DNA of 32,000 bases from Floricoccus tropicus (GTDB taxonomy: Bacteria > Bacillota > Bacilli > Lactobacillales > Streptococcaceae): assembly GCF_001832905.1 (NCBI RefSeq), contig NZ_MKIR01000001.1, positions 214,855-246,854 on the forward strand, read 5' to 3'. How positions within the stretch are numbered: position 1 is the first letter of the stretch; every line of letters begins with the position of its first letter. Shown here one piece after another: positions 20,137 to 25,980 of the stretch. The translations under genes and the position numbers were made by a program. Under the pieces are notes generated by a model. It was not told the origin of the DNA, did not search any database, and saw only the letters and a program-made list of their open reading frames with translations.

Positions 20137-20950
20137 TTCATCTCAAATTATCGGTTACAAACCTGGAAATACTTTTATCTATAAAATAAATACTACAGCA
20201 AAAATGTTGTTCTTCATTCTTGTAACGGTAGCTTGTATGATTTCTTATGACACAAAATTTTTAGTAGCCATAAGTATCTTCTCATTAGTACTTTTTAAAA
20301 TATCAGATATCAAGTGGAAGCAAATATCTTTTGTTATGAAATTCATTGTTGTCTTCTCCCTCCTGAATCTCTTGGTGGTCTTTCTCTTTGATCCAAGTTA
20401 CGGAGCAAGACTATATGGTTCAAAGACAGTTATCTTTGGTTTTCTTACATGGGAAGAACTATTTTATTTATTTAATCTAGCTCTTAAATATTTCTGTACA
20501 GTACCACTTGCACTACTATTTTTACTTACAACTAACCCTAGCCAATTTGCTAGTTCACTAAATAGTTTAGGTGTTAGCTACCGTATATCGTATGCTGTGA
20601 GTCTCGCACTTCGTTATATTCCTGATGTTCAAAATGATTTTAATAATATCAAGATTAGCCAACAAGCGCGTGGGATTGACCTTTCATCCAAAGGAAATTT
20701 AATTACAAGAATTAAGAAAAATGTGCAACTGATACTACCTCTGATTTTTTCAAGTCTTGAAAGAATTGAAAAAGTATCGACTGCCATGGAACTAAGACGT
20801 TTTGGCAGTCGTAAAAAAAGAACATGGTATTCTTACAAGCCATTTAAAAGAAATGATTATTTAGTTCTTGGATTAGCAGTTTTAATAGTATTAATCACAA
20901 TCTCTCTTTTCTGGGTTAATAATGGGCGTTTCTACAATCCATTCGTTTAA
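20129..20950 (+). CDS. ECF transporter transmembrane (T) component, EcfT/CbiQ family
   Basis: About 273 aa, polytopic, with the coupling-helix motif QQARGIDL. The start was moved from 20057 to ATG 20129 (MNDSSQIIGYKPG) behind AAAGGAGGG. It overlaps the ATPase gene by 8 nt. Confidence 0.88.
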   Translation: MNDSSQIIGYKPGNTFIYKINTTAKMLFFILVTVACMISYDTKFLVAISIFSLVLFKISDIKWKQISFVMKFIVVFSLLNLLVVFLFDPSYGARLYGSKTVIFGFLTWEELFYLFNLALKYFCTVPLALLFLLTTNPSQFASSLNSLGVSYRISYAVSLALRYIPDVQNDFNNIKISQQARGIDLSSKGNLITRIKKNVQLILPLIFSSLERIEKVSTAMELRRFGSRKKRTWYSYKPFKRNDYLVLGLAVLIVLITISLFWVNNGRFYNPFV

Positions 20951-21056
20951 CTATAGTCACTTAAAAATAGATTAATACATCGTTGACTCATCTCGATGAA
21001 CGCTAGTTCTATCATCAATTCGTCGCCTTGTCTTATTTCTATTTTAATCAACTATA
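20951..21056 (-). repeat. compact (106-bp) copy of a TIR-bounded, ORF-less palindromic (MITE/BOX-like) element
   Basis: Its reverse complement aligns end-to-end with 25560-25844 once three 60-bp blocks are skipped in the long copy. The ends are CTATAGTCACTTAAAAATAG and CTATTTTAATCAACTATA, forming imperfect ~19-bp terminal inverted repeats. It starts immediately after the ecfT stop codon. Confidence 0.8.
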
Positions 21057-21064
21057 ATAATAAT

Positions 21065-21097
21065 AAAAATCTCCCAAATAATTTGAGAGATTTTTTT
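21065..21097. terminator. bidirectional rho-independent terminator (ECF operon / amylase)
   Basis: AAAAATCTC (21065-21073) pairs with GAGATTTTT (21087-21095). An A-run precedes it and a T-run follows. It sits between convergent genes and abuts the amylase stop codon at 21099. Confidence 0.7.
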
Positions 21098-24896: not shown

Positions 24897-25547
24897 ATGA
24901 ATAATAAAGAAAAATGGACTTTTAGGATTGTAACCTTAGTTTACTGCCTCTACATGCACTATTATGGTGGACCATTTTACTTTATGATTCTAAATGTTTT
25001 TCTAGCTTATATTCCAATTGAAATAAGTTTCCATTTAAACATTAATAATGGTTGGAAATTCTGGCTACTTGCAGCTTTTTGGCTCCTATTTTATCCAAAC
25101 GCTCCTTATCTCTTAACTGATTTTATTCATCTAGTACATCTTCCTATTTACGATGGCTATTCGATTGAAATTAGTAAGAATATGAACTATTGGTGGGATT
25201 ACTCACTTATGGGTCTTGGAATCATTGGTTTCACAATAGTTGGAATGGATTCTATAAATACTATTAGTAGACAATTGCTATATAAATTCAAAGGATGGCA
25301 AGTTATTACATTTCAAATTATTGTTCAATTTCTTTCATCTCTTGCAATTTATGTAGGTCGCTTCGACCGTTTGCATAGTGTTTATATTTTTGCAGAACCA
25401 GTTAACACCATTAAGTTAATATTCTTTACCTGGTCACAAAATAAAATTCAGTTCATTCTAATAATGACTTTTCTACAAATAGGATTATTTTATTTCATAA
25501 ATTTTGTAAGAAAAAATACAAAAAAGAACCTCTCAACTAATAATTGA
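24897..25547 (+). CDS. DUF1361-like polytopic membrane protein
   Basis: 216 aa with about 6 TM helices and the motif YPNAPYLLTDFIHL, which I associate with DUF1361. The start lies 2 nt after the helicase stop. The last codons lie inside the terminator hairpin. Confidence 0.65.
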   Translation: MNNKEKWTFRIVTLVYCLYMHYYGGPFYFMILNVFLAYIPIEISFHLNINNGWKFWLLAAFWLLFYPNAPYLLTDFIHLVHLPIYDGYSIEISKNMNYWWDYSLMGLGIIGFTIVGMDSINTISRQLLYKFKGWQVITFQIIVQFLSSLAIYVGRFDRLHSVYIFAEPVNTIKLIFFTWSQNKIQFILIMTFLQIGLFYFINFVRKNTKKNLSTNN

Positions 25548-25558
25548 GAGGTTTTTTT
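25527..25558 (+). terminator. rho-independent terminator after the DUF1361 gene
   Basis: Perfect 9-bp stem AACCTCTCA (25527-25535) / TGAGAGGTT (25545-25553) followed by T7. The TGA stop codon forms part of the 3' arm. Confidence 0.85.
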
Positions 25559-25583
25559 ATATAGTTGATTAAAAATAGAAATA

Positions 25584-25643
25584 CCTTCGTTTTACTACGC
25601 TGTCGATTACACTTAAATAAGCGAGCTTATAGTGTAAGTCGCA
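25584..25643 (+). repeat. hairpin module 1 (60 bp) of the expanded element
   Basis: CCTTCGTTTTACTACGCTGT leader followed by the imperfect hairpin CGATTACACTTAAATAAGC-GA-GCTTATAGTGTAAGTCG. It is absent from the compact copy. Confidence 0.75.
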
Positions 25644-25652
25644 AGACAAGGC

Positions 25653-25712
25653 ACTTCGCTTCGCTACGATGTCCATAGAACTTAAATTGCTAAAGCAATT
25701 AGTTCTAATGGC
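25653..25712 (+). repeat. hairpin module 2 (60 bp) of the expanded element
   Basis: ACTTCGCTTCGCTACGATGT leader followed by the hairpin CCATAGAACTTAAATTGC-TAAA-GCAATTAGTTCTAATGG. It is absent from the compact copy. Boundaries are ambiguous by 3 nt because of GGC microhomology. Confidence 0.75.
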
Positions 25713-25752
25713 GACGAAAGATGATAGAACTAGAGTTCATCGAGATGAGTCA

Positions 25753-25812
25753 CTACGCCTTGCTCCGATGTCGATTGTACTTATATAAGCAAGCTTATTA
25801 GTATAAATCGCA
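25753..25812 (+). repeat. hairpin module 3 (60 bp) of the expanded element
   Basis: CTACGCCTTGCTCCGATGT leader followed by the hairpin CGATTGTACTTATATAAGC-AA-GCTTATTAGTATAAATCG. It is absent from the compact copy. CA microhomology occurs at the junctions. Confidence 0.75.
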
Positions 25813-25846
25813 ACGATGTATTAGACTATTTTTAAGTGACGATAAA

Positions 25847-25870
25847 TGGAAAAAGACCCGAAGGTCTTCT
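25847..25870 (-). terminator. rho-independent terminator after tRNA-Arg
   Basis: The minus-strand RNA folds as AAGACC-UUCG-GGUCUU (6-bp stem with a UUCG tetraloop) followed by UUUCC. It lies 20 nt downstream of the tRNA 3' end. Confidence 0.65.
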
Positions 25871-25889
25871 ATATAGGTTTGGCACCTAA

Positions 25890-25961
25890 TGGCCCCTGAC
25901 GGAATCGAACCATCAACTAATTCTTAGGAGGAACTTGTTATATCCATTTAACTAAGGAGCC
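25890..25961 (-). tRNA. tRNA-Arg (anticodon CCU)
   Basis: Hand-folded 72-nt cloverleaf. Acceptor GGCTCCT/AGGGGCC (one G-U); D arm GTTA-AATGGATA-TAAC. Anticodon arm AGTTC-CTCCTAA-GAATT, with U33 and CCT at positions 34-36. Variable loop of 4 nt, T arm GATGG-TTCGATT-CCGTC and discriminator A. CCA is not encoded. Confidence 0.9.
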
Positions 25962-25980
25962 ACTTCTATTACGAATAATA

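Follow-up and report, generated by a model that had tools for sequence, protein, structure and literature searches.

Between a DUF1361 gene and a tRNA-Arg(CCT) gene, the Floricoccus tropicus contig NZ_MKIR01000001.1 carries a repeat that occurs again, in a much shorter form and on the opposite strand, within the same 32,000-nucleotide stretch of DNA that was analysed here (the window). The pair raises the question of what kind of element can exist in two such lengths, and by what route the additional DNA of the longer copy is gained or lost. When the long copy is aligned against the reverse-complemented short copy with cheap gap extension, it resolves into the sequence of the short copy plus three blocks of 60 nt (Table 1). 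The unmatched blocks fall at 25583-25642, 25650-25709 and 25751-25810, their boundaries can slide by 1, 3 and 2 nt across the junction letters A, GGC and CA, and the backbone common to both copies is 92-100% identical. A sequence-only reading of the locus had named three separate blocks as the difference between the copies, and the alignment recovers the same blocks if 1-3 nt of junction ambiguity are allowed; the two forms are thus set apart by complete modules, in agreement with that reading. The blocks, designated M1, M2 and M3, are interrelated, with a mean column identity of 81%, and every one of them consists of a leader of about 20 nt followed by a bipartite hairpin. A degenerate pattern written for the module matches the 32-kb window three times, where 0.18 matches are expected by chance, and all three matches are the known blocks.

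Table 1. Positions of the two repeat copies, their component parts and the adjoining host features in the window.
Feature	Position	Strand	Composition or basis
Short-form element, 105 bp	20952..21056	-	Two inverted repeats, linker and core; zero modules
Terminator hairpin common to the convergent amylase-like and ECF-T genes	21064..21092	-	Sequence
DUF1361-gene terminator hairpin	25527..25553	+	Just 5' of the long copy; part of the host gene, not of the element; conserved in L015
Full-length element, 285 bp	25560..25844	+	TA and left inverted repeat, M1, linker, M2, core, M3, right inverted repeat and TA
Left terminal inverted repeat	25560..25582	+	TATAGTTGATTAAAAATAGAAAT; outermost TA presumed to be the target that was duplicated
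Module M1	25583..25643	+	Leader CCTTCGTTTTACTACGCTGT, hairpin CGATTACACT..AGTGTAAGTCG
Backbone linker	25644..25652	+	AGACAAGGC; present in short and long forms alike
Module M2	25653..25712	+	Leader ACTTCGCTTCGCTACGATGT, hairpin CCATAGAACT..AGTTCTAATGG, apical helix AATTGC/GCAATT; fold z -3.6
Backbone core with short hairpin	25713..25752	+	GATGATAGAACTAGAGTTCATC; 30/32 nt identical to the short copy
Module M3	25753..25812	+	Leader CTACGCCTTGCTCCGATGT, hairpin CGATTGTACT..AGTATAAATCG
Right terminal inverted repeat region	25813..25844	+	ACGATGTATTAGACTATTTTTAAGTGACGATA; alignment and repeat pattern
Terminator-like hairpin after tRNA-Arg(CCT)	25851..25871	-	Read from the sequence
tRNA-Arg(CCT)	25889-25962		

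Both window copies are bounded by imperfect terminal inverted repeats, TATAGTnnnTTAAAA(A)TAG. An inverted-repeat pattern, TATAGTNNNTTAAAAATAG, matches all four element ends in the window with 0-1 mismatch against a chance expectation of 0.17, and the left-end inverted repeat is kept in 16 of 17 further copies. The two copies also resemble each other in their surroundings, which have a G+C content of 30-38%: each lies in a gap between convergent genes and adjoins terminators. The long copy is bracketed by two convergent terminators, one belonging to the DUF1361 gene and the other on the tRNA-Arg(CCT) side. The DUF1361 hairpin was called on the minus strand by the terminator scan, and on the plus strand the same hairpin is followed by seven T. 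The short copy starts 1 nt past the stop codon of the ECF-T gene (20948-20950) and stops short of the hairpin that this gene and the amylase-like gene have in common.

A syntenic locus of F. penangensis (L015), retrieved through its DUF1361 protein, which is 92% identical to the one encoded in the window, offers a view of the short-copy site before insertion. The ECF-T protein of the window, for its part, is 100% identical to an F. tropicus protein. There the site between the ECF-T and amylase genes is empty, and the same A-run, hairpin and T-run follow immediately after the ECF-T stop codon. The sequence at the empty site is ...TTATTA|GTTAAATG; its counterpart in the window is ...TTAT-TA(TAGTTGATT...GTGACTA)TA-GTTAAACG, with the element in parentheses. 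Taking the element together with one TA out of the window sequence gives back the 12-mer TTATTAGTTAAA that spans the empty site, a result that fits integration at a TA dinucleotide and its duplication in the process. This target-site duplication is provisional, as it is drawn from a single pair of empty and filled sites and as TATAGTTG, which matches the opening 8 nt of the element exactly, is also present a few bases upstream in the empty site, where the automatic aligner used it and arrived at a different parse of the insertion. A TA flanks every end that was read, except the left end of the mini copy at locus L007.

The family extends well beyond the window. Among the species-representative genomes scanned, a 21-nt right-end pattern identified 14 loci, all of them in F. 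penangensis HibF3, and at least three further loci were found by other means, among them the L015 copy, the L007 mini copy and a divergent module array (L013). The family thus numbers at least 17 copies in this genome, a lower bound from a census by one exact 21-nt pattern in one genome that is biased toward well-conserved copies. Copy lengths range from 62 to 289 bp. The smallest, the mini form of 62 bp, consists of the two ends only and lies between two tRNA-Glu genes (L007). The 105-bp short form is represented by seven F. penangensis copies and the window copy, eight in all, with identical junctions. Single modules are carried by the copies at L006, L009 and L015; L010 contains M1 and a hybrid of the M2 leader with M3, the core being absent; and L014 has M2, core and M3 without M1, its junction at the M1 position being that of the short form. 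The full form is found in the window and at L001, L003 and L008, and the latter three are 90-96% identical to the long window copy. The description of the blocks as exactly 60 bp is accurate for the window but does not extend to the family as an invariant, since the three blocks measure 59-61, 60-65 and 60 bp in the other full-length copies, with 60 as the mode. The earlier sequence-only reading of the locus mentioned neither terminal inverted repeats, nor a multi-copy nature, nor a TA duplication.

The arrangement of the modules is regular. Each module type is confined to its own slot, M1 beside the left terminus, M2 ahead of the core and M3 beside the right terminus, and no slot with two modules was encountered among the copies read. 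Modules standing on their own were looked for in about 190 kb of Floricoccus sequence, and the single instance is the divergent array at L013, which comprises three to four modules without terminal repeats and is situated between the stop codon of an ABC substrate-binding gene and the terminator of that gene. In Streptococcaceae ESL068x, whose ECF-T protein is 79% identical, both sites are lacking and the element was not found in 20 kb. The left-end 19-mer was not found in viral contigs, and a degenerate module pattern with the helix positions left free had no match in metagenome contigs.

The short form carries additional information on mobility. The window copy is identical over 105 of 105 positions to the copies at L002, L005 and L011, which occupy unrelated sites, and the syntenic genes of the window and F. 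penangensis are 90.1-95.6% identical. Since the short form is unchanged across two species while the genes have diverged by 4-10%, its movement is recent, whether it took place within each species or from one to the other. The short form is a propagating subfamily and not a one-off excision product.

The element shows little sign of coding capacity or of relationship to annotated sequences. Its ORFs do not exceed 39 aa and have no credible Pfam match. Searches against phages and plasmids gave blastn hits at chance level only; a recurrent 26-nt match to Lactococcus plasmids was dropped, as it corresponds to an unannotated spacer near IS982. Neither copy has a match in Rfam, where the gathering score returns only the tRNA-Arg and nothing credible appears at E <=10, and by the Rfam 15 covariance models neither copy belongs to a described family. 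In a consensus scan, promoter-like and terminator-like sites were no commoner in the element than in shuffled sequence. The terminal inverted repeats, the multi-copy nature and the TA duplication together place the element among the MITEs. It is very likely that both window copies represent an undescribed family of non-coding, non-autonomous, modular, BOX-like MITEs of Floricoccus.

The closest known counterparts in organisation are the BOX elements of S. pneumoniae/S. mitis and S. suis, which, like the Floricoccus element, are composite, non-coding intergenic repeats of Streptococcaceae that are often located just downstream of genes. BOX elements consist of terminal boxA and boxC and a variable number of internal, self-folding boxB modules, possess inverted repeats and a target duplication, and vary in size at orthologous sites; in S. 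suis, BOX-type families combine seven kinds of module in set permutations (PMC3049150). In both systems the terminal parts pair with each other, the variable internal hairpin modules fold alone, and length at an orthologous site varies through loss or gain of modules (285 vs 117 bp in Floricoccus). The Floricoccus copies have constant ends enclosing variable internal modules, 0-3 in number, and the internal module folds independently as a local hairpin that covaries. They do not form a tandem array of a single module, as BOX does; rather, three module types occupy three fixed slots, with at most one module per slot and with backbone spacers of 9 nt and 40 nt between them. The modules are also larger, 60 bp with a bipartite hairpin as against 45 bp for boxB. 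Streptococcal boxB hairpins show paired variants as well (AAAAC/GTTTT vs AAAGC/GCTTT).

This similarity of plan is not matched by similarity of sequence. Real BOX elements were taken from metagenomic mitis-group contigs by means of the BOXA1R primer, which gave 46 loci, most of them genuine, and a profile was built from seven of these elements; the single BOXA1R match in viral contigs falls by chance within coding sequence of high GC content and was rejected. The seven-element profile gave no evidence of homology with the Floricoccus element (nhmmer E 0.37, negative score), and local alignment to BOX was no better than that of shuffled sequence (p 0.19-0.45). One 10-mer (CAAGGCGACG) and one 9-mer (GATAGAACT) are all that the two share, and their order is reversed between the elements. 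By analogy, the Floricoccus element would therefore work like a BOX-type element, without being a demonstrable member of the BOX family.

How the number of modules changes is best seen at the orthologous DUF1361/tRNA-Arg site of L015, where an element is present at the same insertion point and measures 117 bp instead of 285 bp. This element has a single module between its left and right ends, and that module combines the leader, left arm and loop of M1 with the right arm of M3. The loop variant GCGAGC is found in the window M1 and in the L015 hybrid and in no other copy, and the C.A mismatch of the hybrid is the one expected when the M1 left arm TTACACT is set against the M3 right arm AGTATAA. 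The L015 form is an in-place deletion that arose by recombination or slippage between M1 and M3. Comparable joins exist at other loci: L006 is likewise an M1/M3 hybrid, M1 is joined directly to the right end in L009, and the M2 leader is joined to M3 in L010. The hybrid modules show that modules are lost through recombination between modules, and every module change that can be traced is a crossover between related modules. Length change by slippage or unequal crossover has been proposed for the boxB arrays of pneumococcal BOX (PMC3049150).

The sequence-only reading had proposed something different for the extra DNA, either nested insertion of a small hairpin element at three sites or precise hairpin excision yielding the compact form. 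Each 60-bp block would then be a tiny mobile hairpin that had entered a short host element by three site-specific insertions, or had been precisely excised from it, and the agent might be a hairpin-recognising, single-strand HUH/Y1 enzyme of the IS200/IS605-like kind. Several observations are compatible with this proposal. The same junctions recur whichever combination of modules a copy has or lacks, as in L014, which lacks M1 alone and has the short-form junction; in one framing of the junctions, the module ends at or beside the last paired base of the hairpin; the divergent array at L013 lies outside any element bounded by inverted repeats; and a 41-aa fragment of an IS200-like Y1 transposase is present in the genome (L012). 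The junctions of the short form lie off the obvious direct repeats (CGATGT...), and its precise 60-bp junctions, like those of L014 where M1 is absent, are unaccounted for by simple crossover between such repeats; the short form may have lost modules, or the long form may have gained them. Against independent mobility, however, each module type keeps to its own slot and solo modules are missing elsewhere in about 190 kb, the three insertion points have no common target motif, the nucleotides preceding the hairpin vary (CTAC, CTCC, TTAC, TTCC, CTTC), and the Y1 fragment scores under the Pfam cut-off and is a remnant. All traceable changes are recombination hybrids, and mixed forms can be obtained, in principle, by recombination between short and long members of the family. 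Nested insertion accordingly fits poorly with slot-bound types whose only occurrence outside an element is the L013 array, and excision fits poorly with a short form that propagates in eight copies while the traceable changes are exchanges between modules. We consider independently mobile blocks improbable. A variant in which the 60-bp units are themselves mobile or recombinogenic, with a hairpin-recognising single-strand DNA enzyme placing them in, or taking them out of, set positions of a carrier element (one MITE nested in another), is similarly improbable; if true, it would explain both the recurrent precise 60-bp junctions and the L013 array.

The backbone itself may hold traces of an older arrangement. 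A shorter hairpin in the core had been linked to module 2, and the likeness between the two (GATG...ATAGAACT) is suggestive only, with a shuffle p of about 0.06; the core may be a degenerate module. The nucleotides just before the modules resemble the modules' own ends (TCA/GCA, AGGC/TGGC). One might conjecture an old array of duplicated, partly degenerate units, which would fit both the pre-module nucleotides and the weak likeness between core and M2.

A common hairpin architecture had been claimed for the three blocks, and each of them does fold as described, with an outer helix of 3-4 bp, a 1-nt 3' bulge, a helix of 6-7 bp, a 5' bulge of 2-3 nt and an apical helix of 5-6 bp closed by a tetraloop. 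When single sequences are folded, M2 alone outperforms shuffled sequence (z -3.6, compared with about -0.6 for M1 and M3), so it is the comparative data and not single-sequence folding that supply the evidence. In an alignment of 22 modules from the window and F. penangensis, with the hairpin written from M2, 94% of cells are paired, a share that drops to 28-49% once the 3' partner is displaced by 1-3 columns. Both sides change in 9 of the 16 hairpin pairs, the observed covariation score was reached by none of 500 shuffles, and RNAalifold independently gives the same hairpin with two additional outer pairs. The paired substitutions noticed between the window modules are thereby borne out. One and the same pair is C-G in M1 and T-A in M3, M2 has three middle-helix pairs and four apical-helix pairs that are different, and the modules of L013 have apical helices of their own, AACGAC/GTCGTT and CAGAAC/GTTCTG.

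When the whole element is folded to minimum energy, M1 is paired with M3 and end with end (z -3.6, -4.4), and such M1-M3 pairing would likewise create the C.A mismatch of the hybrids. The covariation between M1 and M3 nevertheless supports local hairpins over this long-range pairing.

The covariation is, however, wholly between module types, with none within a type. Of 14 within-type stem substitutions, 12 break the pair, two produce a wobble and none is compensated. The independent covariation events are few, corresponding to about six module types, which gives about six independent structural "founding" events, after which single copies decay unrepaired. Selection on structure, which the covariation had been taken to indicate, consequently holds between module types and fails at the level of each locus, where individual copies gather uncompensated stem mutations. 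Hairpin integrity would then matter for propagating lineages, or would arise when a module is created, rather than serving the host at any given locus.

A functional RNA would be the alternative explanation for such a structure: the repeats would be a structured RNA gene or a cis-regulatory RNA, such as an sRNA or a 3' structure that stabilises or terminates mRNA, with arms under selection for RNA function. In line with this, the hairpin covaries, complete elements form more stable folds than their shuffled controls (z -3.6 to -4.4), and several copies are necessarily transcribed. All copies of the family are intergenic, 1-50 bp from gene ends, and those inside transcription units must be transcribed, among them the short window copy in the 3' UTR of the ECF-T gene and the copies at L005 and L008 in 5' leaders. 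At L005 the repeat separates a T-box leader (E 4e-10, under the Rfam gathering score) from the start codon, and at L008 it stops 7 bp short of the ORF start, immediately 5' of the ribosome-binding site. Yet no Rfam match appears even at E <=10, the copies occur in both orientations relative to their neighbours (about 10 sense and six antisense with respect to the nearest transcription unit), promoter-like and terminator-like sites are at the level of shuffled sequence, and the number of modules ranges from zero to three. Terminal inverted repeats, TA duplication and presence or absence between species are features of a transposon, and stem mutations in single copies go uncompensated. Mispairs of the G.T and A.C kinds are equally common (11 vs 10), so that neither strand is favoured, unlike what would be expected of a functional RNA with its strand-specific G.U bias. 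A structured or regulatory RNA is therefore judged highly improbable, and copies in transcribed regions probably act merely as incidental stem-loops.

Short extragenic palindromes of other lineages form a further point of comparison. REP/BIME sequences and the Correia/NEMIS elements of Neisseria are, like the Floricoccus element, short extragenic palindromic repeats that give rise to stem-loops in transcripts, and they can affect mRNA stability, termination or processing. Correia elements are non-modular and also duplicate TA. If the Floricoccus repeats were REP/BIME-like, they would have been spread by a REP-associated tyrosine transposase (RAYT). They do share with such sequences the form of short extragenic palindromes in clustered arrays, a CTAC tetranucleotide (GTAG on the other strand) preceding the hairpin in M1 and M2, and the presence of the IS200-like fragment at L012. 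But the tetranucleotide is not conserved across module types, the modules are all in direct orientation where those of BIMEs alternate, and no RAYT gene was found, the 41-aa IS200-like fragment being below the cut-off. REPs depend on RAYT and have neither terminal inverted repeats nor a target duplication, both of which the Floricoccus elements possess. A REP-type origin is extremely unlikely. Readings as attC-like sites, CRISPR-like arrays or tandem repeats were rejected: neither an integrase nor cas genes accompany the repeats, the modules are unevenly spaced (9 and 40 nt), and the elements have inverted repeats together with a TA duplication.

For a BOX-like MITE, movement would depend on an enzyme encoded elsewhere: a host transposase would move the copies in trans, recognising their terminal repeats. 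A search of about 190 kb of Floricoccus sequence for a transposase gene between matching inverted repeats was negative, as was the search there for any additional inverted-repeat pair with a gene inside it. Duplication of a TA target is a hallmark of IS630/Tc1-mariner elements. The TA duplication would thus point to an enzyme of this type, as has been proposed for the pneumococcal repeat RUP, and a partner IS would be expected in the IS630 family, with ends starting TAGTTGATTAAAATAG or TAGTCACTTAAAAATAG. RUP (repeat unit of pneumococcus), for which IS630-Spn1 was put forward as the mobiliser (as cited in PMC3049150), is close to the short form in size, at about 100 bp, and is likewise a MITE bounded by terminal inverted repeats. 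It is simple and non-modular, whereas the Floricoccus element is modular. One Floricoccus copy (L012) lies among IS remnants, as reported for RUP.

Among the papers searched that mention Floricoccus, none is devoted to repeats, and the one genome paper searched for these terms is silent on repeats, MITEs and transposases. The family is a genome parasite of an ordinary kind, here undescribed, and it opens no new biological question. It is nonetheless the first evidence found of a BOX-like modular MITE outside Streptococcus, and it implies that the plan of terminal repeats and optional hairpins arose in another branch of the Streptococcaceae, or persisted there past recognisable similarity. In practical terms, the elements break short-read assemblies, as illustrated by a contig (L016) that stops within M1; they alter the UTR lengths of adjoining genes; and they could be used as strain-typing markers, in the manner of BOX-PCR. 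For the biology of the family, the combination of covariation between module types with uncompensated decay within types places the structural constraint on the propagating lineage and not on the host locus.

The long-copy site, which in the window lies between a DUF1361 gene and tRNA-Arg(CCT), recurs in the Logan contig L016. This contig represents a third lineage of Floricoccus, whose DUF1361 protein is 91% identical. It terminates within the repeat, as is typical of short-read assemblies. From the matching insertion site, L016 shows that the long-copy insertion is common to three lineages.

Features located in the window and in related loci
Feature	Locus	Position	Description
Long-copy site	L016	2598-2639	Same insertion site; terminates within M1 leader
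Divergent hairpin-module array	L013	5090-5435	3-4 modules; spacing ~90 bp
Weak terminal-repeat match TATATTTAGTTAAAAATAA	Window; L015	29440-29458; 10365-10383	2 mismatches
Mini copy	L007	7580-7641	62 bp; two terminal repeats only; flanked by two identical tRNA-Glu(TTC) genes
Short-form copy	L005	7614-7718	
T-box leader	L005	7779-7961	
Copy amid IS remnants	L012	100-1200	

At the F. penangensis site syntenic with the window (L015), the short copy is absent. When this empty site (L015 2158-2185) was compared with window positions 20940-21075, it was found to contain TATAGTTG, the same 8 nt with which the element begins, a few bases upstream of the TA at which the window copy inserted. The match could be due to chance, to a target preference or to the footprint of an older copy. 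The weak terminal-repeat match is kept in both species, where it lies just upstream of the gene for oligoendopeptidase F, and is probably ordinary AT-rich promoter sequence.

The divergent array in F. penangensis locus L013 is without terminal inverted repeats and is located between the stop codon of an ABC substrate-binding gene and that gene's terminator, with the direct repeat CGAGTTTTAATCGCAAsTTCAATGGTTT on both sides. The apical helices of its modules are unlike those of M1-M3, yet complementary. Genuine BOX elements, with 1-3 boxB modules each, were found in the metagenomic mitis-group Streptococcus contigs (L019-L064); paired variants occur within the boxB hairpin (CTCAAAACAnnGTTTTGAG versus CTCAAAGCAnnGCTTTGAG). 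Four of these contigs (L026, L039, L042 and L052) contain a second, distinct element that terminates in the same boxA-like terminus.

In F. penangensis locus L002 (3555-3580, minus strand), GTTGATTAAAATAT immediately follows the right end of a short copy, and the left-end sequence TATAGTTGATTAAAATA thereby occurs again beside it, which suggests either that a second copy is present in truncated form or that insertion took place into another copy's end. The IS remnants around the L012 copy comprise two ISL3-like pieces, one a zinc-ribbon N-terminus and the other a C-terminal fragment, together with 41 aa of an IS200-like Y1 transposase; both of the Pfam matches among them score under their cut-offs. 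This setting is similar to that of RUP, the pneumococcal MITE, which is reported to be often located within or close to IS elements. In L005, a short-form copy separates a T-box leader, which scores 50 bits (E 4e-10) and so falls under the Rfam gathering score, from the regulated gene's start codon, and the element is therefore tolerated within a riboswitch-controlled 5′ leader.
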